Source: Clostridia bacterium (lineage in GTDB: Bacteria > Bacillota > Clostridia > JAAYHZ01). Taken from it: a stretch of 64,000 bases of DNA. Shown here piece by piece: positions 36,245 through 53,187 of this stretch. The DNA lies in the NCBI GenBank assembly GCA_050950825.1, contig JBMNIH010000007.1, positions 187,971-251,970 of the forward strand, in the 5' to 3' direction. A model generated the notes under the pieces. The model saw only the letters and a program-made list of their open reading frames with translations. It was not told the DNA's origin and did no database searches. The translations under genes were made by a program, and so were the position numbers. Positions within the stretch are counted from its first letter, which is position 1. The number at the start of each line of letters is the position of its first letter.

Positions 36245-37600
36245 ATGAGAGATCAGAGAAAAGCAGAGACAATAGCACAGCAGCGGATGGAACTGATATC
36301 GCCACTGCTGGCCGAGGGCCTGGATCCTGCAAAAGCGAAAGAGATCAAAGCCCGTATATGTGAACAAACCGGTATATCAGAGCGTACTCTCCGAAGATAT
36401 GTGGCACAATACCGGGAAGCCGGATTCGACGGTTTAAAGCCTAAAGGAAAGAGCCAAAGAAAAACAGAGGATGCCATACCATCCCATGTATTGGAGCAGG
36501 CTATTCTTCTGCGCAGGCAGGTTCCAAGCCGTAGCGTATCACAGTTGATAAACATCCTGGAGTGGGAAGGAATTGTAGAGCCGGGCCGGATAAAGCGCAG
36601 CACACTGCAGGAGCAATTGGCAAACCGGGGGTACAGTGCAAGACAGATGAAAATGTACACATCAACGGGAGTAGCAGCGCGCAGGTTCCAACATCGGTAT
36701 CGCAATAAGCTCTGGCATTCGGACATCAAGTATGGCCCTTATCTTCCTATCGGCAGGGATGGAGAAAAAAAGCAGGTGTTTTTGGTTCTCTTCGTGGATG
36801 ATGCTACCAGATACGTTCTTCATGGAGAATTTTATCCCACCCTGGATAAAGTCATCGTAGAGGATTGCTTCCGGAAGTCCATTCTTAAGCATGGTGTGCC
36901 CGAAGCCGTATTTTTTGATAACGGCAGCCAATACAGGAACAAGTGGATGACACGGGCATGTGCAAAAATGGGCATTCGTCTGCTCTATGCCCGCCCCTAC
37001 TCGCCGGAAGCAACCGGCAAAGTTGAGAGGCTGAACCGGGTAGTGGATTCCTTTCTTACAGAGGCCGCTTTGGAGAAACCACAGACCCTGGAAAGGTTGA
37101 ACGAGCTGTTCCAGGTATGGCTTACCGAATGCTATCAGAACAGGCCCCATTCCGCCCTGGTGAATCACATGAGTCCGGAGGTTGCATACCGAAGTGATAC
37201 GAAACCCCAAAGGTTTATTGACCCGGACGTCCTGGCTCAGGCGTTTTTGCATTTTGAGGAACGCAAGGTGGATAAAGCAGGCTGTATCAGCTTCAACGGC
37301 CAAAAGTATGAGGTTGGCCTTCCCTTTATTGGCTGCACTGTAGATGTGATCTATGATCCGGCATGCACGGATGAGCTTACCATTGAGTATGAAGGCCATA
37401 ACCCATGGAAGGCTAAAAAGCTGGTGATTGGTGAACGGGCCGGTAGGCGGCCTGGTTTACCGGAACATCTTACCACCGAAAAAGCGGAGGCATCCCGCTT
37501 GCTAAGAGCAGCCAAAAAGAAGAACGAGCAGCGCATAGAACAGTACATGCCTGCCGTCTCTTACAGAAACGTGGCCAAGGGTGGTGAGCAGAATGTTTGA
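36245..37600 (+). CDS. DDE (rve/Mu-type) transposase
   Basis: N-terminal HTH region followed by the integrase core 'LWHSDIKY...FVDDATRY...FFDNGSQY...PEATGKVERLN'. RBS 'aaaggggg' precedes the ATG at 36245 (the ORF is open from 36215). Confidence 0.85.
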   Translation: MRDQRKAETIAQQRMELISPLLAEGLDPAKAKEIKARICEQTGISERTLRRYVAQYREAGFDGLKPKGKSQRKTEDAIPSHVLEQAILLRRQVPSRSVSQLINILEWEGIVEPGRIKRSTLQEQLANRGYSARQMKMYTSTGVAARRFQHRYRNKLWHSDIKYGPYLPIGRDGEKKQVFLVLFVDDATRYVLHGEFYPTLDKVIVEDCFRKSILKHGVPEAVFFDNGSQYRNKWMTRACAKMGIRLLYARPYSPEATGKVERLNRVVDSFLTEAALEKPQTLERLNELFQVWLTECYQNRPHSALVNHMSPEVAYRSDTKPQRFIDPDVLAQAFLHFEERKVDKAGCISFNGQKYEVGLPFIGCTVDVIYDPACTDELTIEYEGHNPWKAKKLVIGERAGRRPGLPEHLTTEKAEASRLLRAAKKKNEQRIEQYMPAVSYRNVAKGGEQNV

Positions 37601-38393
37601 AGCCTTTTATGGGTTTAAACGCACACCCTTCACACGTGATATTCCTACTGACCAGCTTTATCAGCCCATCATACTGGAAGAGACATTAGGGCGCCTGCAA
37701 TATGCTGCAGATCGTCAGTTGTTCGCTGTTGTTACCGGGGACTGCGGTACCGGCAAAACCACAGCTATCCGCCGTTTCCGGGATATTCTGGACTCTTCAC
37801 GATTTCATGTTATGTACCTTGCCGATTCCAAACTGACGCCCAGGCATTTCTACAAGGGTTTACTGGAGCAGCTGGGGTGTGAGGCAAAATTCTACCGTGG
37901 AGATGCCAAACGCCAGCTGCACCGGGAAATTGAGCTTATGAAGGGAATCCATAAACTGCAGCCTGTTGTCATTGTTGATGAGGCTCACCTGTTGGACCGT
38001 GAGATGCTGGAAGAGGTTCGTTTCCTGCTGAACTTCAAGATGGACTCAGAAAGCCCAATGGCTTTAATTCTGGTGGGACAGTCAGAGCTGTGGGACAAGT
38101 TCCAGCTCCAGGCATATGCCGCCATCAAGCAACGTATTGATATTCAGTGCAAACTGAATCATTATGATCGGGCTCAGGTGGGTGAATACGTACACAGACA
38201 TTTAGAGTATGCAGCTTGCGACAGGGAAATTTTCTCTGATGCAGCGTTGGATGAGATATTTAAGTATTCCAGTGGCTCTGCCAGGCTCATAAACAAGCTT
38301 TGCACCCATTGCCTGCTGTTCGGTGCTCAAAATGGCCGTAAAATCATTGATGACCATATGGTAAAGCTCGTGATACAGGGGGAATTGGCGTGA
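37593..38393 (+). CDS. AAA+ ATPase, TniB/ExeA-like transposition protein
   Basis: Walker A 'GDCGTGKTT' and Walker B 'VVIVDEAHLL'. It overlaps the transposase stop (the ORF is open from GTG 37581). Confidence 0.8.
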   Translation: MFEAFYGFKRTPFTRDIPTDQLYQPIILEETLGRLQYAADRQLFAVVTGDCGTGKTTAIRRFRDILDSSRFHVMYLADSKLTPRHFYKGLLEQLGCEAKFYRGDAKRQLHREIELMKGIHKLQPVVIVDEAHLLDREMLEEVRFLLNFKMDSESPMALILVGQSELWDKFQLQAYAAIKQRIDIQCKLNHYDRAQVGEYVHRHLEYAACDREIFSDAALDEIFKYSSGSARLINKLCTHCLLFGAQNGRKIIDDHMVKLVIQGELA

Positions 38394-38716
38394 TACAATT
38401 CCACTGTTCTTATCAATGGGATGATGGTAGTAAAGACATATGGTATGGTACTGTTAACCAGGTTATTAATTTCGGCAGCCACTATGAGGTTTTTATTTTA
38501 AGCCGGAGCAGCTTGCGGGTACTGGTTGGTCAATCAACCTCAGGGTTGTTTGCCTGTCTTCCTGATTTTAGCGCTGGATGCCATCTGAGTGCACTGAATG
38601 ATACTTTCTACAACAGTGAGAAGTTGATTTATGCTTTAGGAAATGTTGTAGACGGTATGACAATAGCTTATGCTTTCAAAGCATTGGAACCATTTTTAAA
38701 CTTCAATAACGACTAA
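38390..38716 (+). CDS. Hypothetical 108-aa protein, last gene of the transposon
   Basis: The GTG start overlaps the ATPase stop (gtGA), suggesting translational coupling. I recognise no family. Confidence 0.45.
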   Translation: MIQFHCSYQWDDGSKDIWYGTVNQVINFGSHYEVFILSRSSLRVLVGQSTSGLFACLPDFSAGCHLSALNDTFYNSEKLIYALGNVVDGMTIAYAFKALEPFLNFNND

Positions 38717-38836
38717 ATACATAGCGGATAACCTTTTAGTTATCCGCTCATGCCTTCGCTTTATTGGCAGTTATACCGTCAACTTTTGGTCAATTAACAA
38801 CATCTATTTCGGGACAATTTGAGCTAGCATTAACAC

Positions 38837-39453
38837 TTAACATCGCAAGGAAAAAGCGAGAATACTATCAATAGTTATTATTTGCATATAAAAGGTTACC
38901 ACCAATGGTATTTGGTATCCTTTGGCAGAGAATGTTCGGTGCTATACCGGGAAAACATCTTAGATTATATCAGTTATCTTCGTAATATTAAGAAAGATAC
39001 TGGTAGAACAATAAATTGCAAGATTAGTGCATTGATAAAGTATAATGAATTTTTGATTGAGAAAGGAATACAGCAAGACCAAGTAGTTTCAAAGAAAGAT
39101 AATATTAATGTACAGCAGACATATGCAAACCCTTCGGATATAACTAAACAGGAAGTAGATGCTTTTAGACAACAACTATTAGAGAATGGGCATCGAGATA
39201 TTTATTGTTTGGCCACATTATTAGCATATGCAGGTTTAAGAATTAGTGAAGCACTTAATATTCAGTTAACAGACTTCAATTTAACAGTTGGAGAGTTAAA
39301 GGTTAGGGGTAAGGGAGATAAAGATAGAGTTGTTTATTTAAATGATAAGATTATTAATAGTATAAGTGAGTTCTTAAGAGTGAGAGAAAGTGAAAGTCCG
39401 TATTTATTTGCAAATAGTAATGGAAAGATAATTCATAGGTCAACAGTTAATAA
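38837..39453 (+). pseudogene. Tyrosine recombinase, N-terminal/core part (5' end missing, 3' part displaced by IS4)
   Basis: The frame is open right from the transposon border with no start codon. 'ENTINSYYLHIKGYHQWYL' and 'ILDYISYL' form a SAM-like core-binding domain. 'LLAYAGLRISEAL' contains the catalytic Arg. Confidence 0.8.
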
Positions 39454-41072
39454 CTCAAACTTCGCAGTAAATTAATATAATAAATTCCTAGATAATTTAA
39501 TATAAGCTTTTTAAGTAATATATGTAACTAAGCGACTTTTGACTTGGGTAATCTTAGTTTTAAATATTCAGGAAGTCTAGAAATGAAAATTCTAAGAAAC
39601 CCATTTACTCGCTTATCATCAATCATGAAATACTCCATTAAGCATTCTGACAGTATTTCGAGAATCAGTTGTATTACTTCATCGAACTTTATGTCTTGCA
39701 ATTCATCGTAGCATAAATAAAACAACTCACCTATAGTTCGATTATCCATATTGTTCCGATTTTCTATTGCCAGCATGATATACCTACTGAGGACTACTGC
39801 GGTATGAGCCGTCATCATATCATATGACAAGCCTTGAAACTCTCTACCTAAATTGAGATATGTCTTGCACATTTTATAGAAAACTTCTATATCCCAACGT
39901 TTGCCATACGTTTGAATTATTTGCTCTTCCGAAAGCGCCAAATCGGTTGAAATGATGGCTATCCATTTCTTCCTGTTATTCCGATCCCGTACGAATACAA
40001 TGCGAGCATCCATAGTCTCTTCTTCTTTGTTGTGAATGGATACGACAACCGACAAAAGGTATTTGGAACGACCACGTCTCTTTTTTTGAGAATTATAGAT
40101 TTCCTTAAGGGTCATTTTCTTTCCGTTAAAGGAATACTTGATATTAGGAGTATCTTTAAGCCGCCCGATGCTGTGAAGCTTCAACTTCGCAATGTCCATG
40201 AGTATTGCAGGATAGGAAAACCAACTGTCGAACAGCACGTGCTTTGCAGGTATGTGTTGCTCGACTGCTTGCCGAAGCATCGCTATCATTAAATCAGGGG
40301 CTTTCTGCATGGCTTGCATTCTTCGTTTGTATCCATTGGTGTTTTTATGGATATCATCTCTCATTTTACACAAATGTTTTTCAACTTTGCCGGATGTGAG
40401 CAAACAAAAATTAAACGGAATAAGTGTGTTGCCATCTGACCATGCAAGAGTAAGCAACCTGAATCCTTTTTTACACTTGTTGTCGGTATGATCTCTGACA
40501 AACGAAAGCATCTCTACACATTTGCTTCGTAAACGGCCGTAGAAGGTATCATCTACAACAATGACATTAATACGGTCATCCGATGTCAAATCCTTTACAT
40601 GGCTGTTTATAACCGTGGATGCCAATGTCATAACAAATGTCTGCCAGTTAATATATATAGAGTTTAGGAAACGATATACAGTATCTTTTTTAAAATCGAC
40701 ATTTTTGTCTCTGTTGCTGTCTTTATTTTTTATCAGGTTCATATACATACTTCTGTTTGTGAAAACCAATTGAAACAAATAGAGAAAAATTTGAATTACC
40801 GGTACACCTCTTTTTTTATAAGCATTGGCATGTTGCAGAGCTTGATAAATTTTAAACTTTCTAAAAAAAAGATTGATTCTATCGTTAAACTGCTTTTCTT
40901 CGATATAATTTTCCGGTATACTATTCATGGCAAGGGGCTCCTTCGTTGTGATATTATGTTTTATTTGTTAATTAATATTATACCACAATCCAGGTCTCCT
41001 TGTCATACTTTTTTGCACTAAACTATTGAATTATCTAGGTTCGAACGCACTTTTTCAAGTGCGAAGTTTGAG
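39454..41072 (-). mobile_element. IS4-family insertion sequence (1619 bp)
   Basis: Terminal IRs 'CTCAAACTTCGCAGT' and, reverse-complemented, 'CTCAAACTTCGCACT'. Flanked by a direct TTAATAA duplication (39447-39453 and 41073-41079). Confidence 0.9.
39528..40928 (-). CDS. IS4-family DDE transposase
   Basis: 466 aa. 'VVDDTFYGR' and the Y-x2-R-x3-E-x6-K signature in 'YGKRWDIEVFYKMCK'. Confidence 0.85.
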   Translation of the reverse strand: MNSIPENYIEEKQFNDRINLFFRKFKIYQALQHANAYKKRGVPVIQIFLYLFQLVFTNRSMYMNLIKNKDSNRDKNVDFKKDTVYRFLNSIYINWQTFVMTLASTVINSHVKDLTSDDRINVIVVDDTFYGRLRSKCVEMLSFVRDHTDNKCKKGFRLLTLAWSDGNTLIPFNFCLLTSGKVEKHLCKMRDDIHKNTNGYKRRMQAMQKAPDLMIAMLRQAVEQHIPAKHVLFDSWFSYPAILMDIAKLKLHSIGRLKDTPNIKYSFNGKKMTLKEIYNSQKKRRGRSKYLLSVVVSIHNKEEETMDARIVFVRDRNNRKKWIAIISTDLALSEEQIIQTYGKRWDIEVFYKMCKTYLNLGREFQGLSYDMMTAHTAVVLSRYIMLAIENRNNMDNRTIGELFYLCYDELQDIKFDEVIQLILEILSECLMEYFMIDDKRVNGFLRIFISRLPEYLKLRLPKSKVA

Positions 41073-41269
41073 TTAATAAGATTTTTAATAAATATAGTGA
41101 TAAGATCACGCCTCATGCATTGCGACATTATTTTTGCACGATTGCTTTGGAGGGCGGGCTATCAGTTCATGAGGTTGCCTATTTGGCAGGCCATAGCAAT
41201 ATTCACACTACGCTTATATATTTGAATCCGAGTAGAGAGGCAATTAGGGGAAAAATAAATAACCTGTAA
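41073..41269 (+). pseudogene. Tyrosine recombinase, C-terminal catalytic part
   Basis: Removing the IS and one TSD copy joins '...HRSTVN' in frame to 'KIFNKYSDKITPHALRHYF...LAGHSNIHTTLIYL' (the H-x-x-R, H and Y catalytic residues). Confidence 0.85.
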
Positions 41270-41303
41270 TTAAAGGGGTGCTTTGGCCCCTTAAAATTGG
41301 ACA

Positions 41304-42257
41304 TTAACTTGCTTTTTCTATTACTTTTTCAGTTTTTTGAGCATATTCTTTATATGCCTGTTTAGGTGTTTTTAACTTAAGTCCCCAGTGTAATCTCCTG
41401 TTATTGTAAAAATCTTCCCAGTCTAATAAAGCAGCTCTCGCCTCTTCTAAACTGTCAAATTCACTTCTACTCAATAATTTTTCCTCAAGAATTCCATGAT
41501 ACGCTTCTATATGACCGTTTTCTTCCGGACATCTTACATGAGTAAATTCATGATAAATTCCTTTTATTTTGCAATATTCCGCGAAGTTCTCACTTATGTA
41601 TTGAGACCCATTATCGCTCCTTAAAATAAGTCCTAACGGATCAATTCCCCTATCCTTAATTGCTTTATCTAAAGCCCTGACCGCTTTCTTTGAATTTATA
41701 CTATAATCAGCATAGCTTCCAACAAGCTCTCTTGTAAAAACATCTATATAATTAATAATGTAAAATGTCCTGCCTTTTCCTGCAATATAGCCATACTTAA
41801 TGTCCGTAGCCCACATTTGATTCGGTCTTCCAACTTTTCTGTCATCTACCCTTCTTCTATGTGCATGTTTCCTGTTAACTGGCTTTAAAAGTCCATTTTC
41901 GCGCATCAACCGATATACTTTCTTCTTGTTTATTTTTATCTTGTATAATACCCTGAGATGTGCAGTTACTTTCTTGTAACCATAGCAACTGCACTCTCCA
42001 CTCAAAATTTCCCGAATTATTGAAACTATCTCTTCATCTTTAATTTTTCTACCTGTCTCATCCAAAGAATATCCTTCTGGCTTTCTTCCTTTTCTGTTCC
42101 CTTCAGACGAGTCCCTTCGGTTTCTATTTCTCTTCCAGTAATAGTATGTACTGCGCGCTACTTTAACTAACTTTAATACTGTTTTCGCAGCATGCCCTGC
42201 TTTTATGTATTTATCTGCTACCCCTAATCTATCTTCAAGCCCGGGCTCGTTTTTTTT
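41304..42257 (-). CDS. IS3-family transposase OrfB (expressed as OrfAB by programmed -1 frameshift)
   Basis: Slippery A8 on the minus strand at 42250-42257. The -1 frame is open from there into the rve core 'WATDIKY...LRSDNGSQY...PEENGHIEAYH'. Confidence 0.85.
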   Translation of the reverse strand, partial: KKNEPGLEDRLGVADKYIKAGHAAKTVLKLVKVARSTYYYWKRNRNRRDSSEGNRKGRKPEGYSLDETGRKIKDEEIVSIIREILSGECSCYGYKKVTAHLRVLYKIKINKKKVYRLMRENGLLKPVNRKHAHRRRVDDRKVGRPNQMWATDIKYGYIAGKGRTFYIINYIDVFTRELVGSYADYSINSKKAVRALDKAIKDRGIDPLGLILRSDNGSQYISENFAEYCKIKGIYHEFTHVRCPEENGHIEAYHGILEEKLLSRSEFDSLEEARAALLDWEDFYNNRRLHWGLKLKTPKQAYKEYAQKTEKVIEKAS

Positions 42258-42553
42258 AATAGATCCTTATATATCTTAATTGCTAATTCTTTTTCACCCA
42301 GGAGTTTCTTCAATTCTTCATTTTCTCTCCGTAGTTCATACTCTTTCGAGGTAATGGAGCTTATTGCCTTTGGCGCAAGACCATCTACTCCTGTTTCCTC
42401 ATATTTAGCTCTCCATTTATAGAAGGTATTAGGGCTAATATTATGCTTTCTGCATATCTCCGCTACTCTAACTCCTGCCTCATAATCCTTAATTGCTGCT
42501 AATTTTTGTTCAACTGTGAATCTCTTCCTCATACTTTCTTCCCCCTTGAACAA
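42224..42553 (-). CDS. IS3-family transposase OrfA (HTH)
   Basis: 109 aa. 'RKRFTVEQKLAAIKDYEAG...ISPNTFYKWRAKY' followed by a leucine-zipper-like tail. Confidence 0.9.
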   Translation of the reverse strand: MFKGEESMRKRFTVEQKLAAIKDYEAGVRVAEICRKHNISPNTFYKWRAKYEETGVDGLAPKAISSITSKEYELRRENEELKKLLGEKELAIKIYKDLLKKTSPGLKID

Positions 42554-42604
42554 ATTGTATTACATTTTTATACAATCTGTCCAACCGTCTAAGGGGTCCT
42601 TAAC

Positions 42605-44510
42605 AAGGGGCTGTTGCACTAAAAAGAAATAGTGCACAGCCTCTTTTTAATTGATAAAAAATAAATCCCGATGCCCAAGAAGCAAGGGATTTATGATAAA
42701 ATAACAATATGAAAACCTTAAAACTTAATAAGAAGTATACATTTAAACGAAGAAATTATCAACTAAAACTTCCAATAGAATTGGAATATAAAATTCCTGA
42801 CGATGATCCGGTTCGCTTGTTGAGTCATTTTGTGGAGGAGATGGATTTAGAAGATTTGTATTCGACTTATTCTCGTATAAAGAGAAACCAAGCAAGCCCG
42901 CGTCAGATGCTTAAAATCTTAATTTACGCATACATGAATCATATTTATTCATCAAGAGACATAGAAAAAGCATGTCGTCGCGATGTAAATTTTATGTACC
43001 TTTTAGAGGGTATGCTGGTACCTGATCATGCAACGTTTTCCAGGTTTCGAAGCTTGCATTTCACACCTTGTGCCAAAAGAATTTTGAGTGAAATGTCCGA
43101 ATTTCTCTATGATATCGGAGAATTATCCGGCGACGCCATATTTATTGACGGCACGAAAATAGAGGCGTGTGCAAACAAATACACTTTTGTCTGGAAAAGA
43201 GCGGTCACAAAAAATCAAGAGAAGTTGCTTGCAAAATTGGCGGATTTCTTCGCGGAATGCGAGGAAAAGTACGGAATCAAAATAGTATACAATAATCAAG
43301 TCGAAATGAAACACGTTAAAAAGTTACGCAAGAGACTGTATGCCATAAAGAAGGAAGAAAACATCGAGTTCGTACATGGAAAAGGGAAGAGAAAAACACC
43401 TTTCCAACGATCCATTGAGACTTTGGAGAATGATTTGGATAAGCTGAAGGAATATACGAAAAACATACATGTATGCGGAGACCGCAACAGTTTTTCAAAA
43501 ACGGATCACGATGCGACGTTTATGAGAATGAAAGAGGACGCTATGGGCAACGGTCAGCTGAAAGCGGCATATAACATTCAGCATGGCGTTGACTCCGAGT
43601 ACATAACATGGGTAACGGTGAATCAATGCACAACGGATGCACCGACTCTAATACCTTTTTTGAATGAAATGAGATCCCATTTAAAATTCAAATACAAAAA
43701 AGTTGTCGCGGACGCAGGATACGAAAGCGAAGAAAACTATATTTACTTGGATAAAAACGGCCAATCGGCGTATATTAAACCGTTAAATTTACGAACAATC
43801 CAAAACCAAGAAATATAAAAATGACATTGGTCTTATGGAAAATATGGAATACCATGCAGAAGGAGATTATTACGTCTGTCATAACAAGAGAAAACTTGTC
43901 GTTAGCGATATAATAAAGAAAAGAAGCAAAAACGGATTTTTGAGCGAGAAAACGGTTTATACATGCGAAGATTGCAGTGATTGCTCCTTCAAAAGTAAAT
44001 GTATAAAAGGAAATAGCAAGATTCCGTTGACTGAAAGGGTAAAAAGACTTCACGTGGCGAAGGAATTTATCCGACAACGAGAAAAAGCCATGGAAAGAAT
44101 ACGGAGCGAAGAAGGCTGCATGCTTAGAATAAACAGAAGCATACAGGCGGAAGGATCTTTCGGAACAATAAAGCAGGACATGGGATTTCGGAGATTTTTG
44201 TGCAGAGGTAAGGCGAATGTACTTGCCGAGAGCATACTACTGGCTATGGCTTTTAACGTAAATAAGCTTCACAGTAAAATTCAAGCCGGACGAACCGGTA
44301 CACATCTTTTTCAATTTGAAAATAGTGCTTAAGTGAAAACAAATTAAAGAAAAAGCCGATTATTACAAAAGGTGTATTAAGTGCACCCTTTTTTAGTAAT
44401 CGGCTTCTTTGTTGATTAAAATTAATTAAAATTCCTTAAATTCAAGGTAAAATATTGAAAAAGAGGCAGTGCATCAGAAGTTTAAAAAACCTCTAATGCA
44501 ACAACCCCTT
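42605..44510 (+). mobile_element. IS1182-family insertion sequence, decayed copy
   Basis: IRs 'AAGGGGCTGTTGCA...' and, reverse-complemented, 'AAGGGGTTGTTGCA...'. Near-identical to 53188-55089. Confidence 0.9.
42709..44332 (+). pseudogene. IS1182-family transposase, frameshifted
   Basis: Relative to the intact copy there is one extra T in the run at 43788-43790, which splits the ORF into 42709-43818 and 43835-44332. There are also two amino-acid substitutions and a 3-nt in-frame insertion near 43955. Confidence 0.9.
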
Positions 44511-44667
44511 TTTTGATCAGATTCCAATAACGATACTTTGTACCTACATTATACATAATATAGTAAAAAATCTTATAAATTATGAACTTTAAATTGGAAT
44601 AGTGTATAATATTGTTAAAGAATTAATGGAACGTTATGGGATTATATGAATTTTAAGGGGTGAAAAT

Positions 44668-45672
44668 ATGGCGACAACTGTAAATAATGCATTTAAAGAG
44701 TTTATGCGAGATAAGGTCAACTTGGATCCGGACAAAACAAAAACTGCAAGAAAAAGCAGGGACAATCTTATAGATAATATACATAGTTTGGGTTCTAATG
44801 AAGATTTTTTCAATTTATATCATGACATTGATATTGCATTTGGCTCATTTGCAAGAAAAACAAAAATAAGACCCTTAGATGATATTGATATAATGATTGG
44901 GATTAACGGTGACGGTAGCACTTATTATGATTCAGGCTATGAGGTTAAAATTTATGTAAATGATGATAATTCTCCACAAAAGAGTTGTTGCAATGACAAT
45001 ACTAACATACTCAATTCAACAAAAGTTATTAACAAATTTATAAAAGAACTTAAAAATTTAAACGATTATAAGAAAGCGGAGACCCATAAGAATGGTGCGG
45101 CAGCCACCCTTCAACTAAAATCTTATGAATGGAATTTTGATATTGTACCATGTTTTCGAACAACTAAAGAATCTGATGGCCGAGATTATTATTTAATACC
45201 AGATGGAAAGGGAAATTGGCAAAAAACAGATCCACGCAAAGATAGGGATAAAGTAACTACTTTGAACCAAAAACATAATGGATTAATGTTAGAGACTATA
45301 AGATTGGTAAAGTATTGGAATAGAAGACCTACAATGCCATTGATGCCATCTTATGCATTAGAATGTTTATTACTACAATATTTTGATAGCGTAGATAGTG
45401 TAAGTGATTATATTGATTTAAGATTTAGAGATGTTTTATATTATATCAAAGATAACATTTGGTATTCCATTAATGATCCAAAAGAAATTCAAGGAGATTT
45501 AAACACACTTACATATGATGAAAAACTGAAAATTTCAAACAAAGCAGAAAGTGATTATGAAAAAGCAAAAGAAGCGATTTCTGCAGAAATAGATGATAAA
45601 GATCATGAGAAAGCCATTAAAAAATGGGCTGAAATATTCGGAAGCGAATTTCCAGAATATAGCGAGGATTAG
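44668..45672 (+). CDS. SMODS/CD-NTase-like nucleotidyltransferase
   Basis: 334 aa. Pol-beta NTase motifs 'GSFARKT' and 'DDIDI', the third acidic residue in 'WNFDIVPCF', and 'YLIPDGKGNWQKTDP...IRLVKYWN'. Strong RBS 'aagggg'. Confidence 0.75.
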   Translation: MATTVNNAFKEFMRDKVNLDPDKTKTARKSRDNLIDNIHSLGSNEDFFNLYHDIDIAFGSFARKTKIRPLDDIDIMIGINGDGSTYYDSGYEVKIYVNDDNSPQKSCCNDNTNILNSTKVINKFIKELKNLNDYKKAETHKNGAAATLQLKSYEWNFDIVPCFRTTKESDGRDYYLIPDGKGNWQKTDPRKDRDKVTTLNQKHNGLMLETIRLVKYWNRRPTMPLMPSYALECLLLQYFDSVDSVSDYIDLRFRDVLYYIKDNIWYSINDPKEIQGDLNTLTYDEKLKISNKAESDYEKAKEAISAEIDDKDHEKAIKKWAEIFGSEFPEYSED

Positions 45673-46578
45673 ATGGATATGGATAGTAGTAATGATATTA
45701 ATATAAAGCAAAACACCGAAGAAATTCTTTTATATTTGTTTGCCCAGAGGAAATTGTACTCATTGAGTAAAAGAGCACTTCATATAATGTTATTTGTTAA
45801 TCTTATTTTTTATGTTTTAGGATTAATCAATACGATTCAGAGCAATAATTATTTTAAAGCGATATATGTTATTTGGGGGGTAACTTTTTGTATATTATAT
45901 ATTAGAGAAGGTGAAAGAATAAATACTGCTGCTACAATGCAGGAACTTATAGACAGAAAATTATATGGGTTCGATACATACGCTCCTTTTCTGAAAGTGA
46001 CGAGCCTGCATAAAATAGCATTGGAATTAAAAACAAAGTTTCCAAAAGAGTTTATTGAACAAACAAGTCGTAATGGGCAGCAAAAAGGGGTTAAGGATTG
46101 GTATTCAGATGTATCAGGAGTTTCTATTGAAAAAGCAATTATACTTTGTCAAATAGAAAATAGTGATTGGGAAACTCAACTAAGAATGAAGTATCAAAAA
46201 CTAAATATATTATTGCTTGTAATTTTGCTATCAGTATATGTTGTTATTTTTTGGAATAATAGTGTAGAAAATTTAATAATAAAACTATACCCCATATTAA
46301 CAATTGTAGTAGATAGACTTTCTTATATATATAAGAACTATAAAAACATTAAAAGTAGTAAAGATATTAACGATAGCCTATATCAAATTTATGAAAACAT
46401 TGAGGAATTCACCAAAGAAGACATTTTAAATAAAGCCAAAGAGATTCAACATTGTATTTATGAAAGAAGAAAAAACTTTTCTCCCATTCCCAATTTATTC
46501 TATCACCTAAATAGGGAGAAGTATCAAAGTTATTCGAACCAGTATATTTTGGATCTAAAGGAAAAACTAAAAAAGTAG
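45673..46578 (+). CDS. S-4TM-type membrane effector (SMODS-associated 4TM)
   Basis: 301 aa, starting immediately after the NTase stop. It has two N-terminal TM helices, the soluble 'QELIDRKLYGF...CQIENSDWE' region, two further TM helices and a charged tail. Confidence 0.65.
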   Translation: MDMDSSNDINIKQNTEEILLYLFAQRKLYSLSKRALHIMLFVNLIFYVLGLINTIQSNNYFKAIYVIWGVTFCILYIREGERINTAATMQELIDRKLYGFDTYAPFLKVTSLHKIALELKTKFPKEFIEQTSRNGQQKGVKDWYSDVSGVSIEKAIILCQIENSDWETQLRMKYQKLNILLLVILLSVYVVIFWNNSVENLIIKLYPILTIVVDRLSYIYKNYKNIKSSKDINDSLYQIYENIEEFTKEDILNKAKEIQHCIYERRKNFSPIPNLFYHLNREKYQSYSNQYILDLKEKLKK

Positions 46579-46582
46579 GCCA

Positions 46583-46691
46583 TGGTAATGTTCATACTAC
46601 ACTTATCTGACTATTATGATTACATAATGTCAAAAGTACCAGAAAGTGAAAAAATTCCGCTTATATTATCCGGTGCACCCTTTTATTTAAC
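46583..46691 (+). pseudogene. 5' stub of an unknown gene truncated by IS256 copy B
   Basis: The ATG at 46583 opens 'MVMFILHLSDYYDYIMSKVPESEKIPLILSGAPFYLT', which runs straight into the IS end at 46692. Confidence 0.35.
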
Positions 46692-48083
46692 GATAGTGTC
46701 TTGTCAAGTGGTGTAAAATGATTTCTACTTTATCTTCCCTTCGTTTCATTTATGTAAGATAGCAATCGGAGCTAATGAAAACCCATTAGCCTGTGTAAGC
46801 TTTTCCATAGATTCTAAACTGAAGTATCGCCGCCCTACCTGCCATTCATCGTTCTGCTCCATAAGCATAGTACCTACAAGGCGAATAACGGCATCACGAT
46901 TAGGAAATATGCATACAACATCAGTCCGACGGCGTATCTCACGATTAAGCCGTTCCAATGGATTCGTAGAATGAATCTGTATCCAATGCTCACGGGGAAA
47001 GGCCATATACGCCAATATATCCTCTTCGGCTGCTTCAAGGATTTCCATTGCTTTCGGAAAACGCCCCCTCAGTTCATCTACCACATGTCTTAGCTGTTCC
47101 CTTGCGGATTCCTGATCATTTTGTGCAAAAATGGTGCGTATGATTGAGGAGACCATTCCTTGGCACTTCTTCGGCACTTGGCTTAATACGTTCCGCATAA
47201 AATGTACTCGGCATCTTTGCCATGTGCTCCCGGTTAAAACCTTCTTTATGGCGGATTTTAACCCCTCATGGGCATCACTTACAACTAACTTCACCCCTTT
47301 AAGTCCCCTTGCTACAAGCTTTCTCAGAAACTCTTCCCAAAAAGCTCCGTCTTCACTCATGCCGACATCAAAACCTAGTATCTCTCGTTCACCGGACTGA
47401 TTTACACCTACGGCTATTACAAGTGCCATACTGCATACTCTTCCACCTTCACGAACCTTAGGAAAAGTAGCATCAAGCCAAAGATAAGGGTATTCTCCTT
47501 CGAGTATGCGGTTCTTGAACTCGGTGACAAAGCCATCCAATTGCTTGCTGATCCCGGAAACTTCGCTTTTATCCATCCCTTTAATTCCGAGAGATTCTAC
47601 CAACTCATCTACTTTTCTAGTGCTGACACCGTGCACATAAGCTTCCTGCACCACATTTAATAAAGCTTTTTCTGACATCTTCCGAGGCTCTAATAAACTT
47701 GGGAAATAGCTTCCATGCCTCAATTTGGGTATGCTTAACTGTAACGTACCAAGGCGAGTATCCCATTCTCTTTGTCGGTATCCATTACGATGATTGTTCC
47801 GATTCTCACTTCGTTCATACTTTTCCGCACCGATCATCGACGTAACTTCCGCATCCATCAGAGCATTGATTAACAGCGTAAGCGCTTCCTTTAAAAAATC
47901 CTTATCTTTTTCAACAACATACTTGCTAAGTTGCTCTAAAAGTGACATTCTATTTTTAGTAGCCACGGTATGACCTCCTTTACTTTATCTTTTTTATTTG
48001 AATCTAATAAAGTAAAAATCATATCGTGGTTACTCTTGTCAAGCATACTCCACGAAATTTACACCACTACTTAAGACTATAAC
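46692..48083 (-). mobile_element. IS256-family insertion sequence, copy B
   Basis: Same ends and length as copy A at a constant offset of 26639 bp. The only difference I noticed is A at 47996 versus G at 21357. Confidence 0.9.
46746..47966 (-). CDS. IS256-family transposase (identical protein to 20107-21327)
   Basis: The 406-aa translations are identical in the ORF track. Confidence 0.95.
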   Translation of the reverse strand: MATKNRMSLLEQLSKYVVEKDKDFLKEALTLLINALMDAEVTSMIGAEKYERSENRNNHRNGYRQREWDTRLGTLQLSIPKLRHGSYFPSLLEPRKMSEKALLNVVQEAYVHGVSTRKVDELVESLGIKGMDKSEVSGISKQLDGFVTEFKNRILEGEYPYLWLDATFPKVREGGRVCSMALVIAVGVNQSGEREILGFDVGMSEDGAFWEEFLRKLVARGLKGVKLVVSDAHEGLKSAIKKVLTGSTWQRCRVHFMRNVLSQVPKKCQGMVSSIIRTIFAQNDQESAREQLRHVVDELRGRFPKAMEILEAAEEDILAYMAFPREHWIQIHSTNPLERLNREIRRRTDVVCIFPNRDAVIRLVGTMLMEQNDEWQVGRRYFSLESMEKLTQANGFSLAPIAILHK

Positions 48084-48309
48084 CAACCAACCGACTGCTG
48101 TTTTGATGTCGATTGAAAACTACAAGCAAATTAAAAAATTACAAGAATTTTTTGAAAAGCTTGAGACACAAATATTACTTGAGCAAGCAATAGAAATTCA
48201 GAATAAATTAGATGAAAATCAAATGTTGACTATGGAAGATGTTATGAATAAACATAACATTTCCGAAGAAGAACTGAAAAAGGCTATGGAAAGTGTGGAA
48301 ATTGAATGA
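48084..48309 (+). pseudogene. Phd/YefM-type antitoxin, N-terminally truncated by IS256 copy B
   Basis: The frame is open from the IS boundary: 'NQPTAVLMSIENYKQIKKL...' is the mid-part of Phd/YefM antitoxins. About 30-40 N-terminal residues are missing. Internal TTG/ATG at 48103/48106. Confidence 0.65.
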
Positions 48310-48695
48310 TGTGGACCATAAAGTTTTCACCTGAAGCAGATATAGACATTTCCAAATTGGATAGATCTTTAGTGTTACAAGTATTAGCAGAAATAAAAAA
48401 AGTTCGTTCTAATCCATTACCACATCCGAATGGATATGGGAAACCTCTTGGTAACAAAGCAGGGAATAATTTGACAGGATTTTTTAAAATCAAGTATCGG
48501 GGAATCGGTATACGGGTAGTATACTCATTAGTTTTAAACAAACAAATTATGAATATTTTAATCATCTCAAAAAGGGATGATGATGAATGCTATAAAATGG
48601 CAGGGGCTCTTTATAAAAAGTATGGAAGTTCATTATTTGATGTAATTGGCATAAGAAGACGAACAGTTTTAGAGAAATTATCCCTAGCAGACTAA
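48306..48695 (+). CDS. RelE/ParE-family toxin
   Basis: The ATGA overlap with the antitoxin stop is typical. The pattern 'W.I.FS..A..D..KLD', 'NP...G..KPL...L.G....K.....R..Y' and 'ILIISKRDD' matches RelE/ParE. Confidence 0.7.
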   Translation: MMWTIKFSPEADIDISKLDRSLVLQVLAEIKKVRSNPLPHPNGYGKPLGNKAGNNLTGFFKIKYRGIGIRVVYSLVLNKQIMNILIISKRDDDECYKMAGALYKKYGSSLFDVIGIRRRTVLEKLSLAD

Positions 48696-48836: not shown

Positions 48837-50246
48837 TCAATTCATTGTTATGAAAACACCGTCGCAGGAGCCGGGGGTAACCGTAATTTCATCCGTGTTT
48901 TCCGTTCTTGTCCGTTCGCCGTGTTCATATACCGAAACCGTATATTTCCGTGCGAATTTAACCGTGATATTCTGTGAAGCGTACGGGTCGTAAATGTTCC
49001 GGCAGTTTACCAGCATAAGCGCGTTTCTTCCCTGCGTGTTTGCAAAATATCCCGCCAGCGCGGTACTTTCGCTTTCAATGCTTTTTACCGCGGGAATACC
49101 CGTAAAGCCCTGCGCCTTGTTGTTCTTTTTCTGCTTTCTGCAGGCAAAAACGAAATGATGATTAAGTCTTTTTGCCTTTGCGAATTCGACTCCAAGGCTT
49201 CGGTAATCCTTCAGCACGGGCGACAGCTTGGCAATTTCCGCATTGACTCTTTTCACATAGAGGTACTGCTCCGTAAGGTTGCCGTTGTAGTCTATAATGC
49301 CGATGGCGTCCCTGCCCCAGACGGGATTGTAGGATGCATGGATAATGCTTCGGCAGCCGTAGCAAAGGGAGGCGTAAACCTGCCATTTTATCATTTCGAA
49401 GGTTGTCATGGTATATAAATGCGAAAACCACCTCATCTGACTCTGGATGTAAAGCCAAAAATCCTTTCCGTCGCGGCGGCAGGCGTTGCCGATTGTGTGG
49501 TAGGTATTCAGGTACAATGACATTCCGATCTTGTTCAATATCCTTGACGGATGGAAGGGATAGACGTCAACCGAAAGATAATCGGATTCCACCATGGAAG
49601 GAAACTTATCGACGTATTCCGCATAGGAATTTTCGCCCCACACGCTCTTTATCCCCCAGTCGGGCAGCAGATTCGTAAAGACGAATCGGTCGGGAAAATG
49701 CTTCCGATATGCGCGATGGAATTTTTGGACAAACCCGAAATCGCTTGAATGGGGCTCGTCGGAACAACAGTCGCCCACGGATGCCGGATGCGGCACGAAA
49801 CGGTCTAACGGCGACGGATTTTCAACATCGGCACTCAAAAGGATACTCTTTAGAAATTTGCGGTTCTCTTTGCCGATAACGGCGATATTGTATTTTTCGC
49901 ACCAATCGAGGATTTTCTTCGCATACTCCCCGTCGTTGCCGTTGATGATGAAATCAAAGCCCGCCTCCGAAATCAGCTTGATGTCGTTTTCCGTCACCTC
50001 GGGAACCCTTCCGAAAATCGTTGTACCGGAAAGAATTCTGTTCCTGTCGAGTCTTCCCCCGATATTCGCGGGCTTTCTCTCAACCGGCTGTCCTAGCTTT
50101 CCTTCGATAATCAGTTTTTTGTCCCGCTTTCGAATTTCCGTTTCGTTCTTCGTTTTTGCGGGCGACACAAACGCCATAAAATCCATCAGCGCCGTCAGAT
50201 ATTTATTGTCAAAGATGTCCGCCGCAATCTTAAGCTTTTTCTTCAT
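48837..50246 (-). CDS. Hypothetical protein, possibly TIM-barrel glycoside-hydrolase-like
   Basis: 469-aa ORF with backbone-like GC and RBS 'ggaggaagg'. The fold assignment is only an impression. Confidence 0.6.
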   Translation of the reverse strand: MKKKLKIAADIFDNKYLTALMDFMAFVSPAKTKNETEIRKRDKKLIIEGKLGQPVERKPANIGGRLDRNRILSGTTIFGRVPEVTENDIKLISEAGFDFIINGNDGEYAKKILDWCEKYNIAVIGKENRKFLKSILLSADVENPSPLDRFVPHPASVGDCCSDEPHSSDFGFVQKFHRAYRKHFPDRFVFTNLLPDWGIKSVWGENSYAEYVDKFPSMVESDYLSVDVYPFHPSRILNKIGMSLYLNTYHTIGNACRRDGKDFWLYIQSQMRWFSHLYTMTTFEMIKWQVYASLCYGCRSIIHASYNPVWGRDAIGIIDYNGNLTEQYLYVKRVNAEIAKLSPVLKDYRSLGVEFAKAKRLNHHFVFACRKQKKNNKAQGFTGIPAVKSIESESTALAGYFANTQGRNALMLVNCRNIYDPYASQNITVKFARKYTVSVYEHGERTRTENTDEITVTPGSCDGVFITMN

Positions 50247-50548: not shown

Positions 50549-52789
50549 ATGAGCAGGAAAATTCCGTGGGGAACTCGTGTAGCATGGTATTTCTACAACA
50601 ATCCCGAGTTTTTTGAAAAAACCGATGAAGATTTTGAGAACGATGCCAAGGAGCTTGCCGAAAGGGGCATAACGGTCGTGATCTTATTTACCATGACCCA
50701 TTTTCGCTGGAGCTTCTACCCTTATTGGGATCGTATCAACAATCTTTTGCGAAGGATTTGCAATGCCTTCCATAAGTACGGCATCAAAGTGGTGGAGCAC
50801 CACAGTACAAGTCTTTGCGAATGCCCTCTTCCCGAAGAGGAATGGGAAGACCGGGTAGGAGGCATCTTCCGTGAAAGAGGCTTGTATTTTACCTCCGACA
50901 AAGCCCGCTACGGACCTTATCTTGACCGTTGGTCGAAAATCAAGCCGTTTTTGTGCAATCCGGATTCCAAGGTGGAGGGGGTTCCCTTCTTATCTATAGT
51001 CCAAGTAGACGGCCGCACGGGGGCTCGCTCCGTATCCAATTACCAAACGAGCACCGTTTGCTACAATAACGAAGACTTCAGGCGTATCTATTTTTCCTAT
51101 CTGGAATCCCTGTACAAATGCGGAATCGACGGAATCATGACGGACGACGTACAGTTTTTTAGCGGCGGGAACGCCTGCGCTTGTTCCGTATGCCGCCGTC
51201 TTTTCAAAGAACAAACCGGATACGATTTGCCTTCTCCCGAGGAGTGGAACCAAGGTTTTATCGGCAATTACGACAATCCGGTGTTTGTTGCTTTTAACAG
51301 GTTTAAGCTGGAGAGCGCAAAGCGCTTTCAATTGGACGTGGATGCTCATTTTCGGTCTTTGGGATACGATATGATTCGCATCGACTATTTCGGATGCTCT
51401 CTTTCTTGGCCGAATACCACCTCCTATCCTTTTCATCAATGTGCCCACGCAAAAGACCTCATATTCCAAGAGAATACCCGCTTAAATGTAACAAAGCTTT
51501 CTTGGCCTTCCTATTACTGTGCCGCGGTTTACCTGTACGAATTGGGAAAGATGTATGACATTCCTTCCATGTCCGTCTTTTACGATTCGAAGGACTTTAG
51601 CATCTATTTCGGTTGGGCCATGTCCATAGCATGGGGGCAGATGTTCAACGGTTCTTTCCCTTATACCCAAGAAACGAAAAGGGCCATAAAGCTGCTTCAT
51701 AATTTTGAACGCCGTTACCCCGACATTGTGTATAACCAAAAAAAGCGGGCCGATGCCGCCGTGTTCTTTTCCACGGACATGCAAGATATTTGGCATGATA
51801 CGTCCTTGGACATATGGAAAGCCGTTCCCGCTTGGCTTCAAGCCGGTGCCTTTTCCGGATTGTGCATGAGCATTGTAACCCACAAACAAGCGGAGCAGGT
51901 ATCGGAGCTTAGCAAAAACAAAATCATTATTGTTCCGAACACCTTAATGCTAAAGGACAGTGAAATTCAAAATTTAGGCGCTTATGCGAAAGAGGGAGGA
52001 CGTCTGGTTTTATGCGGACAAGTCGGTATTTATGATGAAAATATGCGCCCTCGGCCCTACGATCGTATTAAAGAATTGCTGCAAAGTACCGTTACCCTAA
52101 AGCCTCTTTCGGAAAGCTTGTCCGTAACCCTTCCGGATTTAAGCCCCATGCCCTTTAATACCGTATACGAAGGCGGGGAAGTGTTGTACAACACGGATAA
52201 AGGCGCCGCCTGTGTTCGCGAAAAAGTGGGCTTAGGTGAAATCATATACATCGGTGTGGAATCCCAAAAGATTCCCGTCCACGGGACCGCACGAGGCAAT
52301 CGTCCTACGGCCATAAAAGCCTCGCAGGACGCCGAGCAGCTGGCACGGCCGAATCTTGCTCCGAGATACGCCGTTGATACATTACGAGCCACATTGGGAC
52401 GTTTCTTGCTCGGCTTGGTTTCCGAGCCTGTCCTTTATGCGGACAAACAGAAAGAATACTTTACCGCCGTTTTCGATTCTCACGACGGCAAAAGCCGTAT
52501 TGTCCATTTGGTGAATATTAAGGATACGCTGCAAGCGGAAGGAACGCCATATGCCTTTGAAACGGTGATTCGTGCCTTTGACATATTCAACGAGAACGGA
52601 AACGTACCCGAAAAGAACGGGGCCATAACGCTGGATGTGGAATGCGATTTTACGCCTTCCGCCGTTCGGATTCTAACGCCGGAGCGAACGGAACCCGTTG
52701 AAGTGTCTTTTGATTACGGCAAAAGACTGCAAATTCGTATTCCCGAAAACATATTCTCCGGGTATGCGGCGGTGGAAATATGCAAATAG
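50549..52789 (+). CDS. Hypothetical protein, GH42-like architecture (TIM-barrel-like N-terminus plus trimerisation/GATase-like middle domain), tentative
   Basis: 746 aa with RBS 'aaggag'. The segment 'IIIVPNTLMLKDSEIQNLGAYAKEGGRLVLCG' resembles the GH42 middle domain. Confidence 0.6.
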   Translation: MSRKIPWGTRVAWYFYNNPEFFEKTDEDFENDAKELAERGITVVILFTMTHFRWSFYPYWDRINNLLRRICNAFHKYGIKVVEHHSTSLCECPLPEEEWEDRVGGIFRERGLYFTSDKARYGPYLDRWSKIKPFLCNPDSKVEGVPFLSIVQVDGRTGARSVSNYQTSTVCYNNEDFRRIYFSYLESLYKCGIDGIMTDDVQFFSGGNACACSVCRRLFKEQTGYDLPSPEEWNQGFIGNYDNPVFVAFNRFKLESAKRFQLDVDAHFRSLGYDMIRIDYFGCSLSWPNTTSYPFHQCAHAKDLIFQENTRLNVTKLSWPSYYCAAVYLYELGKMYDIPSMSVFYDSKDFSIYFGWAMSIAWGQMFNGSFPYTQETKRAIKLLHNFERRYPDIVYNQKKRADAAVFFSTDMQDIWHDTSLDIWKAVPAWLQAGAFSGLCMSIVTHKQAEQVSELSKNKIIIVPNTLMLKDSEIQNLGAYAKEGGRLVLCGQVGIYDENMRPRPYDRIKELLQSTVTLKPLSESLSVTLPDLSPMPFNTVYEGGEVLYNTDKGAACVREKVGLGEIIYIGVESQKIPVHGTARGNRPTAIKASQDAEQLARPNLAPRYAVDTLRATLGRFLLGLVSEPVLYADKQKEYFTAVFDSHDGKSRIVHLVNIKDTLQAEGTPYAFETVIRAFDIFNENGNVPEKNGAITLDVECDFTPSAVRILTPERTEPVEVSFDYGKRLQIRIPENIFSGYAAVEICK

Positions 52790-53176: not shown

Positions 53177-53187
53177 ACGGCAAAAAG

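Follow-up and report, generated by a model that had tools for sequence, protein, structure and literature searches.

Gene content of the locus

Two open reading frames lie on the forward strand of the window (the whole stretch of 64,000 nucleotides that was analysed), between an IS1182-type and an IS256-type element. The reading frames proposed in the initial annotation, encoding 334 and 301 aa, were both found, and they abut as it had described: the TAG stop codon of the first (45670-45672) is directly followed by the ATG of the second, at 45673. The cassette is self-contained and about 2.1 kb in size. GC content is about 30% here. The features of the locus are as follows.

42602 to 44514, forward strand: IS1182-type element, context (Pfam DUF772, DDE_Tnp_1 and DDE_Tnp_1_6)
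44515 to 46691, forward strand: whole cassette, from the IS1182-type right end to the IS256-type left end (IS ends deduced from repeats within the window)
about 44505 to 46604, forward strand: block conserved in relatives (blastn against L005, L007 and L008)
44562 to 44667, forward strand: conserved upstream region (alignment of six loci), containing a -10 box, a weak -35-like sequence, a leader motif and a ribosome binding site (RBS)
44582 to 44587, forward strand: weak -35-like ATGAAC, 3 of 6 consensus positions
44668 to 45672, forward strand: CD-NTase (SMODS) cyclase, 334 aa (Pfam, PADLOC, catalytic residues, AF2/Foldseek, dN/dS)
45664 to 45667, forward strand: GAGG Shine-Dalgarno sequence of the effector, inside the cyclase 3' end, 5 nt 5' of the effector ATG
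45673 to 46578, forward strand: S-4TM membrane effector, 301 aa (Pfam, PADLOC, hydropathy, AF2, dN/dS)
effector residues about 36-55, 62-79, 177-195 and 199-216, forward strand: hydrophobic helices (hydropathy)
46603 to 46691, forward strand: downstream remnant of 89 bp (blastn to L007 5724-5812, 95.5%), cut by the IS256-type element
46692 to 48083, reverse strand: IS256-type element, context (Pfam Transposase_mut, E 3.5e-137)

The first gene encodes a CD-NTase

The 334-aa protein matched the Pfam SMODS family PF18144 (E 3e-14, 54 bits for a gathering cut-off of 26.5) as well as 35 PADLOC models of CBASS cyclases, the best being PDLC00802 (E 6.5e-148, positions 1-331 of 332). In the NCBIfam search, CBASS cyclase models were the sole credible matches (E 6e-33 to 1e-7), the one other match having an E-value of 0.16. 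Scores were below the cut-offs of the CBASS_cyclase_a, CBASS_cyclase_b and cGAS equivalogs (114.6 versus 200, 73.7 versus 200 and 31.1 versus 150 bits, respectively), which places the protein in a related subfamily, outside the curated equivalogs. All the motifs quoted in the initial annotation are present, namely G59-S60, D72-x-D74, D158 in WNFDIVPCF, YLIPDGKGNWQKTDP and IRLVKYWN. Residues G59, S60, D72, D74 and D158 do not vary among 32 aligned family sequences, and the GS and DxD motifs align to the GS and DID of PaCdnD in the PDB sequence search.

The AF2 model of the cyclase (pLDDT 84.8) has a bilobed, cGAS-like fold. When it was compared to the PDB with Foldseek, the top 50 matches were CD-NTases, cGAS/cGLRs and the cGAS-like MiD51, with PaCdnD (6p82) as the best. 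PaCdnD was the best PDB match whichever the search (sequence E 1.4e-13, profile E 5.9e-22, fold E 4e-14). Taking profile E-values of PDB chains as the proxy, in place of a tree, the series obtained (PaCdnD 6e-22, EcCdnC 7e-9, EclCdnD 2e-7, CdnE 3e-3, DncV 0.44) points to clade D and C enzymes as the nearest ones.

The model revealed a family-specific, beta-rich insert at about residues 80-115, with a Cys-Cys pair. It contained no protease-tripwire activation loop, that is, a central, disordered and surface-exposed segment of about 30 aa: pLDDT falls below 50 only at residues 60-71, a segment of 12 aa that is invariant in sequence, and the loop after the D158 strand has about 10 aa. According to the paper on protease-tripwire CD-NTases (Hobbs & Kranzusch 2026, PMC12991175), no more than about 18% of the enzymes in clade D possess such loops.

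The second gene encodes an S-4TM protein

Over positions 1-285 of 291, the 301-aa protein matched the Pfam S_4TM family PF18159 (E 3.4e-32, 112.4 bits for a cut-off of 26.9). It also matched nine PADLOC 4TM effector models, the best being PDLC00715 (E 6.6e-34). Each of the two proteins thus matches its own family end to end, which supports the proposal that a SMODS nucleotidyltransferase and an S-4TM effector form a CBASS-like module here.

The topology of the effector was derived from hydropathy and the AF2 model. Four 17-residue Kyte-Doolittle peaks, at 36-52 (2.35), 61-77 (1.86), 177-193 (2.96) and 197-213 (1.57), bear out the predicted 2+2 pattern, helices 2 and 4 being weaker. The second protein therefore has both the hydrophobic helices and the S_4TM similarity expected of it. 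Its AF2 model (pLDDT 89.4) is all-helical, with long helices at 16-50, 59-98, 152-196 and 206-241. By the positive-inside rule, the N-terminus, a central domain (80-176) and the C-terminal helices (217-301) should face the cytoplasm; 36 of the 38 invariant positions lie outside the transmembrane helices, in these predicted cytoplasmic segments, examples being Q90, E91, D94, R95, W143, Y144, R265 and R266. PDB sequence and profile searches with the effector gave no match, and Foldseek of the confident model against solved structures gave no meaningful one (best E 0.24), so no known pore or channel could be linked to this fold. Pore-forming activity, understood as nucleotide-gated membrane permeabilisation, is a prediction for the S-4TM family as a whole.

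Compared to relatives at dS 0.3-2, the cyclase had dN/dS values of 0.03-0.11 and the effector of 0.15-0.17, which indicates that both genes are under purifying selection.

Upstream region and coupling of the two genes

The TATAAT box and the RBS reported upstream of the cyclase were recovered, the former at 44605-44610 and the latter as AAGGGG at 44655-44660, 7 nt 5' of the ATG. Across six aligned homologous loci, whose sequences have diverged elsewhere, TATAAT, ATGAA and the RBS do not vary. A conserved leader motif is also seen in this upstream region. A scan for consensus promoters in this AT-rich region was not above chance (14 found, for 16.2 expected), so that the putative promoter function of the conserved region is argued for solely by its conservation across loci. 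The abutting cyclase stop and effector start suggest translational coupling of the two genes. The scan for intrinsic terminators 3' of the effector found none. An Rfam scan of 44300-46800 returned chance-level matches only, hence no riboswitch or known RNA in this interval.

Insertion sequences and defence island

The flanking IS1182 and IS256 copies are real, and each is near-identical to a second copy in the window. The upstream IS1182-type copy is 99.5% identical to an intact copy at 53185-55093, its transposase being interrupted by an insertion of 1 nt at 43788. The downstream IS256-type copy is 99.93% identical to 20053-21444. Only about 90 bp separate the end of the former from the -10 box, and the latter lies about 110 bp downstream; these adjacent elements could alter expression of the cassette. 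The 89-bp remnant preceding the IS256-type element shares homology with a portion of a 193-aa ORF, which in L007 is found 3.5 kb further downstream.

Directly upstream of the cassette, within the same IS-riddled defence island, lies a full type 1 BREX system. This BREX-CBASS island is being actively reshuffled by several IS families. No 8-bp target-site duplications were found around the two IS256 copies, taken singly or as a composite element; transposition of BREX and CBASS as one unit is therefore not supported. The location looks chromosomal. A tRNA search of the whole window found none, and no tRNA-linked island boundary can thus be defined.

The cassette in related loci

Beyond the cyclase, CBASS operons may contain accessory genes: Cap2 and Cap3 define type II, HORMA and TRIP13 type III, and OGG/QueC-like genes type IV. 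The ORFs of at least 120 aa located outside other genes between 35.7 and 50.2 kb include no accessory gene of types II to IV; they correspond to transposases, an integrase fragment, a ParE-like toxin and a 469-aa ORF without assignment. The statement that no Cap2/Cap3-like or SAVED gene accompanies the module was hence borne out by the ORF survey, HORMA and TRIP13 being absent as well.

The initial annotation had also suggested that the module could be part of a larger system, now truncated. Its relatives do not agree with this, as those lacking the IS elements carry this two-gene unit too, amid unrelated neighbours, and show no conserved accessory gene beside the pair. We conclude that the unit corresponds to a complete type I CBASS, and not to a larger system that was truncated. 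The pair is kept in at least eight other contexts (L005, L007-L010, L012 and the plasmid loci L014 and L015), next to an integrase fragment, IS21, DUF4145, a glycosyltransferase, type I restriction-modification, ISNCY, NACHT-like or Mokosh-like genes. The closest synteny is with a Lachnoclostridium MAG; in L008, a syntenic relative, the gene after the cassette is Mokosh-like. Two cyclases with one S-4TM recur in L001-L004 and L013. A clear recombination breakpoint is visible at the cyclase/effector junction.

Pairing of the cyclase with S-4TM is conserved across phyla. Pairs with 44-53% identity were found on 972 sequenced plasmids, of which 708 are predicted to be conjugative, and they are often flanked by IS; in NCBI records of these plasmids the partner already bears the name "S-4TM family putative pore-forming effector". 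A search of a phage collection returned one match only, at 44% identity, on an unannotated faecal phage contig, which suggests that the cyclase family is not typically phage-borne.

Comparison with known systems

This is a well-known and very widespread kind of two-gene anti-phage system, composed of a cGAS-like signalling enzyme and a membrane-damaging S-4TM effector. A 4TM system of Bacillus cereus VD146 is said to have been validated by Millman in 2020. Most type I operons combine a cyclase of clade D, E or F with a 2TM or 4TM effector, and in E. coli a type I operon made of a clade-D cyclase and a 4TM protein restricts phages from five families at least 10,000 fold, for which it needs the active site of the cyclase (Richmond-Buccola et al., 10.1101/2023.05.21.541620). 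As in EcCdnD12-4TM of E. coli SLK172, the CD-NTase is here followed by a four-TM effector, without accessory genes or AGS-C fusion; among solved structures, those of clade D are the nearest to the present cyclase. The host is a Clostridia-like Firmicute instead of a gammaproteobacterium.

Plasmid pairs of Enterobacterales and Fusobacterium (for example NZ_CP047640.1, and NZ_CP096850.1, IncHI2) share with the cassette the families of both cyclase and partner, the gene order and near-abutting genes; their cyclases are 44-53% identical over the full length, and transposases often flank these pairs too. They differ by about 50% sequence divergence, and by the apparently chromosomal defence island in which the present pair resides. 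With CdnD of P. aeruginosa ATCC27853 (6P82) and CdnC of E. coli MS115-1 (6P80), which scored best in the sequence, profile and fold searches, the cyclase shares the bilobed CD-NTase fold and the active-site motifs, at an identity of only about 20%. These two enzymes belong to type III systems, in which HORMA and TRIP13 regulate the cyclase and the signal goes to the NucC nuclease, whereas all those genes are absent here; in addition, PaCdnD leaves the beta-rich insert at about 80-115 unaligned. The beta-barrel 2TM protein Cap15, SLATT and the 2TM-SAVED protein Cap14 are likewise presumed nucleotide-activated, membrane-disrupting effectors encoded beside a cyclase. They belong to different protein families, however, the present effector matching only the PADLOC 4TM models and Pfam PF18159, and the module contains no SAVED or beta-barrel domain. 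A lactococcal plasmidome type I CBASS was set aside as a comparison, its effector being SLATT.

Function and alternative explanations

The cassette is very probably a complete type I CBASS anti-phage operon, and a probably functional one. It is unlikely that it is instead a silenced or decaying relic, with intact genes left unexpressed or useless by IS insertions and rearrangements. Such decay would fit with the heavy IS load of the island (IS21, DDE_5, IS3, IS1182 and IS256 types within 12 kb), with the missing target-site duplications of both IS256 copies, which imply later rearrangement, with the loss of the downstream sequence present in L007, and with the degraded copies of the module elsewhere (truncated in L011, devoid of effector in L001-L004). 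Neither ORF is shortened, however, and each retains every residue that is catalytic or invariant in its family; the conserved sequence upstream, with -10 box and RBS, has not been disturbed either. Moreover, cyclase copies from independent samples are 100% identical to this one at the protein level, and the 99.5-99.9% identity of the IS copies to their second copies indicates that the insertions are recent. The presence of IS on both sides, together with the type III (HORMA/TRIP13) origin of PaCdnD and EcCdnC, to which the cyclase is structurally closest, could also suggest a remainder of a type II or III CBASS from which IS activity removed Cap2/Cap3 or HORMA/TRIP13. We consider this very improbable: none of the relatives examined has such genes beside the pair, the neighbours differ in every context, and in L005 and L008, both free of the IS, the cassette begins at the same point (about 44505), just 3' of a terminator-like hairpin.

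The strong link of the family to mobile DNA (the 972 plasmids mentioned above), and the growth delay caused by EcCdnD12-4TM over-expressed alone (10.1101/2023.05.21.541620), would be compatible with a mainly selfish role, where the module stabilises mobile DNA as an addiction cassette, low basal signalling keeping a toxic membrane protein in check. The likelihood of this is very small, as there is no antitoxin-like component, published toxicity needs the cyclase active site and a phage protein, a related operon strongly restricts phages, and defence systems generally travel on mobile elements. As for a non-signalling pol-beta enzyme, either an MNT/HEPN antitoxin-type or an aminoglycoside NTase, adjacent to an unrelated membrane protein, the GS...DxD...D pattern by itself is indeed common to all pol-beta NTases. 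This proposal is effectively refuted and retains next to no probability: neither type was matched in Pfam or NCBIfam, nor when the PDB was searched by sequence, profile or fold, the matches being all CD-NTase or cGAS-like, and the partner is an S_4TM family member whose pairing with the cyclase holds across phyla.

From knowledge of the family, we infer that the cyclase would stay inactive until a cue of phage infection is received. Once activated, it would use its GS / DxD / D site to turn NTPs into a cyclic di- or trinucleotide, which may bind the cytoplasmic part of the co-translated S-4TM protein, formed by the conserved N-terminus, the central domain and the C-terminal helices. Membrane damage by the two transmembrane hairpins would follow, and the infected cell would no longer support phage replication, through abortive infection or growth arrest. 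One may further speculate that this Firmicute CdnD-like subfamily senses infection in an undescribed way, with a beta-rich insert and no cleaved loop, perhaps with an uncatalogued signal and a three-part S-4TM binding site, the two-cyclase, one-S-4TM arrangement being a real dual sensor and not the decay of tandem operons; we regard this as unlikely.

Significance

The locus adds one intact type I CBASS, with a CdnD-like cyclase and an S-4TM effector, and matters little beyond annotation. Pfam, PADLOC and NCBI naming already recognise this family, and experiments in E. coli have validated it. What modest value the locus has is that of a clean, self-contained example in an IS-reshuffled BREX-CBASS island, in which the breakpoint at the cyclase/effector junction illustrates the exchange of effector alleles. 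Questions for the family as a whole concern the activator of loop-less clade D cyclases, the nucleotide that these produce, its binding by S-4TM proteins and the manner in which the latter damage the membrane. Because its effector has a confident model and no solved structural relative, this small Firmicute pair is a reasonable subject for addressing them.

Genes, motifs and upstream region of the cassette

Two genes had been placed here by the initial annotation, and both open reading frames were found exactly where it put them, on the same strand:

44668-45672, + strand, cyclase gene, ORF of 334 aa
45673-46578, + strand, effector gene, ORF of 301 aa

As claimed, the TAG stop of the cyclase is followed immediately by the ATG of the effector, and all the cyclase motifs quoted are present in the sequence. 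In an alignment of 32 homologues (52-89% identity), residues G59, S60, D72, D74 and D158 were invariant. The promoter-like TATAAT and the ribosome binding site (RBS) also proposed were found as sequences: a perfect TATAAT lies at 44605-44610, with AAGGGG 7 nt 5′ of the cyclase ATG and GAGG 5 nt 5′ of the effector ATG. A generic promoter scan of this 30% GC stretch gave 14 sites against 16.2 expected, which is not above chance. We infer that a promoter upstream of the cyclase is nevertheless plausible, because six homologous loci, diverged in the surrounding bases, all keep unchanged the TATAAT, the RBS and, at the -35 position, an ATGAA. The 5′ leader between the -10 box and the RBS (44611-44654) carries a motif, TGGAAC-N-T-ATGG-AT-TAT, largely kept in six loci diverged elsewhere; it had no Rfam match, and may be an operator or leader element.

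Identity of the cyclase

The first protein is a CD-NTase, as the initial annotation had it. It scores above the Pfam SMODS gathering threshold (E 3e-14) and matches PDLC00802, a PADLOC cyclase model, over the full length (E 6.5e-148), 34 further PADLOC CBASS cyclase models matching more weakly. Three NCBIfam CBASS cyclase models also matched, each under its strict equivalog cut-off, and the remaining NCBIfam match was at chance level (E 0.16). A PDB sequence search returned CD-NTases only, P. aeruginosa CdnD being the best (PaCdnD, 6P82, E 1.4e-13), with GSYARYTKTKPLKDIDI of PaCdnD aligned to GSFARKTKIRPLDDIDI of the cyclase. With the family profile, PaCdnD came first (6e-22), followed by an unnamed CD-NTase (9SA4/9SA5, 3e-15), EcCdnC (7e-9), E. 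cloacae CdnD (2e-7), a clade E enzyme (3e-3) and DncV (0.44). Alternatively, the protein could have belonged with MNT or aminoglycoside NTases, a case raised at the outset. Such structures were looked for, and none were among the Foldseek matches of the AlphaFold2 (AF2) model (pLDDT 84.8), which retrieved PaCdnD, EcCdnC, cGAS, CdnB and CdnD structures. These sequence, profile and fold matches in the PDB, rather than a labelled tree, therefore place the enzyme closest to the CD-NTase clades D and C.

Residues 60-71 (window 44845-44880), which separate the GS and DxD motifs, read SFARKTKIRPLD and are nearly invariant in sequence. These 12 residues are the only cyclase segment modelled with pLDDT <50, and may form a mobile regulatory loop. 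At about residues 80-115 the model confidently shows a beta-rich insert with a Cys-Cys pair, to which nothing in PaCdnD was aligned.

Identity of the effector

The assignment of the second protein to the S-4TM class was borne out by Pfam S_4TM (285 of 291 profile positions, E 3.4e-32) and by nine PADLOC 4TM effector models. Its predicted 2+2 transmembrane topology was recovered as four hydropathy peaks in that layout (36-52, 61-77, 177-193 and 197-213), with the weaker peak of each hairpin at its second helix. Both inter-helix loops are uncharged and 3-6 residues long, and the N-terminus, central domain and C-terminus are Lys/Arg-rich; the positive-inside rule would place these three soluble parts in the cytoplasm. 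Across 21 homologues, 36 of the 38 invariant residues fall in the soluble parts and 2 in the transmembrane helices, a pattern consistent with a putative ligand-binding module on the cytoplasmic side, attached to membrane hairpins that tolerate sequence change. The AF2 model was confident (pLDDT 89.4, pTM 0.87); a PDB fold search with it found nothing alike (best E 0.24), and PDB sequence and profile searches with the effector gave no match.

Completeness of the cassette

IS1182 and IS256 copies had been reported on either side of the cassette. Both are real, with boundaries set from intra-window repeats, and they enclose 2177 bp:

42602-44514, IS1182-type element; second copy at 53185-55093, 99.5% identical
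46692-48083, IS256-type element; second copy at 20053-21444, 99.93% identical

In L005, a relative with a 100% identical cyclase, little more than a terminator-like hairpin separates the counterparts of window 41276 and 44507, which shows the IS3-type and IS1182-type elements (41277-44506) to be insertions upstream of the cassette. Synteny (BrxL, integrase fragment, cassette) is kept at L008, a Lachnoclostridium MAG locus free of both elements.

The slot 3′ of the cassette varies among relatives and holds other defence-like genes. The L007 genes lie between the cassette and the counterpart of an 89-bp remnant, which in the window lies directly against IS256; in L008, Mokosh-like genes occupy the slot downstream of the cassette:

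L007, 2438-5222, 409-aa AAA/NACHT-like ATPase and IS66 transposase
L008, 7392-10687, Mokosh MkoA-like kinase and helicase ORFs (PADLOC E 1e-149 to 1e-158)

In the more distant L009, L010, L012 and plasmid loci L014 and L015, the pair is kept beside DUF4145, IS21, glycosyltransferase, type I R-M/Tn7-like or ISNCY genes.

The initial annotation had suggested the remains of a larger, truncated system. This is not supported: the relatives' neighbours differ, and no conserved accessory gene was found among L005, L007-L010, L012, L014 and L015. Nor does the window region contain Cap2/Cap3, HORMA/TRIP13 or SAVED genes, in agreement with the reported absence of Cap2/Cap3-like and SAVED genes. Judged by gene content, the two-gene unit is the whole system, a predicted type I CBASS.

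The surrounding island

A complete type 1 BREX system, BrxA to BrxL (22114-35406), lies just upstream of the cassette, followed by a pile-up of mobile-element genes (35708-42601):

22114-22710, BrxA
22711-23292, BrxB
23309-26863, BrxC
26881-30150, PglX methylase
30784-33339, PglZ
33364-35406, BrxL
35708-38393, DUF6431 and IS21 istA/istB
38882-39475, truncated tyrosine-integrase fragment
39528-40928, minus strand, DDE_5 transposase
about 41284-42601, IS3-type element, abutting the IS1182 copy

Of these mobile-element genes, the syntenic L008 has the integrase fragment only. BREX and CBASS form one defence island. The two IS256-type copies (20053-21444 and 46692-48083), in direct orientation, bracket the whole segment of about 28 kb. 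No matching 8-bp target-site duplication was found around either copy or around the pair as a composite, which suggests later IS-mediated rearrangement. In the IS1182 copy beside CBASS, an extra T at 43788 splits the transposase into ORFs of 369 and 165 aa, and GTT is inserted in frame at 43955-43957; the transposase of the second copy is intact (539 aa, 53292-54911).

Just past the IS256 copy, two small overlapping ORFs of 68 and 129 aa (48103-48695) are a possible type II toxin-antitoxin pair, the 129-aa ORF matching ParE_toxin weakly, under the threshold (E 7e-4, 20.6 bits vs 23). Beyond them lies an ORF without Pfam or PADLOC match, adjoined by a GH42-like protein:

48837-50246, minus strand, 469-aa ORF in a 48% GC region
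50549-52789, GH42-like beta-galactosidase-domain protein

A mosaic cassette of a well-known kind

Compared to L005, the cassette is 99-100% identical from 44506 to about 45545 and only 80-89% identical beyond 45684; compared to L007, it is 97-100% identical from about 45100 on. Since identity to L005 falls where identity to L007 stays high, the cassette is a recombinant, with its breakpoint at the cyclase/effector junction (window 45546-45683). Effector alleles have thus been swapped by recombination near the gene junction. In several relatives, the cyclase homologue is accompanied by another SMODS gene, a divergent one, and by only one S-4TM gene:

L001-L004, 3924-7047, SMODS-S4TM-SMODS, cyclase homologue 89% (close)
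L013, 5001-7855, SMODS-SMODS-S4TM, cyclase homologue 49% (distant)

In L001-L004, the cyclase is followed by about 70 nt left over from the 5′ end of an effector gene since lost, which suggests decayed tandem operons.

The cyclase family gave 2449 matches at E <= 1e-10 among 3065 word-index candidates of the protein collection. Homologues (44-53% identity, nearly all full length) are carried by 972 sequenced plasmids, mainly from Escherichia (615), Salmonella (117) and Klebsiella (109), and 708 of the 972 are predicted conjugative. At both of the plasmid loci that were examined, the adjoining gene carries the NCBI name "S-4TM family putative pore-forming effector". On one of them the IS-bracketed layout of the window is repeated:

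L015 (NZ_CP096850.1, conjugative IncHI2 plasmid), 1400-6354, cyclase/S-4TM pair between two ISNCY transposase genes

Because its cyclase relatives are many and the plasmid pairs already named, the cassette belongs to a well-known kind.

Functional state and proposed action

Against relatives at dS 0.3-2, dN/dS was 0.03-0.11 for the cyclase and 0.15-0.17 for the effector, and the IS elements leave the conserved upstream region untouched; for these reasons the cassette is regarded as functional. With one such element 90 bp 5′ of the -10 box and another 110 bp 3′ of the stop codon, transcription of the cassette could be affected.

A direct precedent, the E. coli SLK172 type I operon EcCdnD12-4TM, restricts phages of five families at least 10,000 fold; its toxicity is triggered by the scaffold domain of a phage prohead protease and requires the cyclase active site (10.1101/2023.05.21.541620). 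According to a 2026 preprint, a phage-protease cut in a ~30-aa disordered loop activates many cyclases of clades A and G and, within clade D, about 18% (PMC12991175); the model of the window cyclase shows no loop of this kind. By analogy with characterised CBASS, the cyclase would stay inactive until infection and would then make a cyclic oligonucleotide; this signal would bind the cytoplasmic face of the S-4TM protein, which would compromise the membrane and halt phage production.
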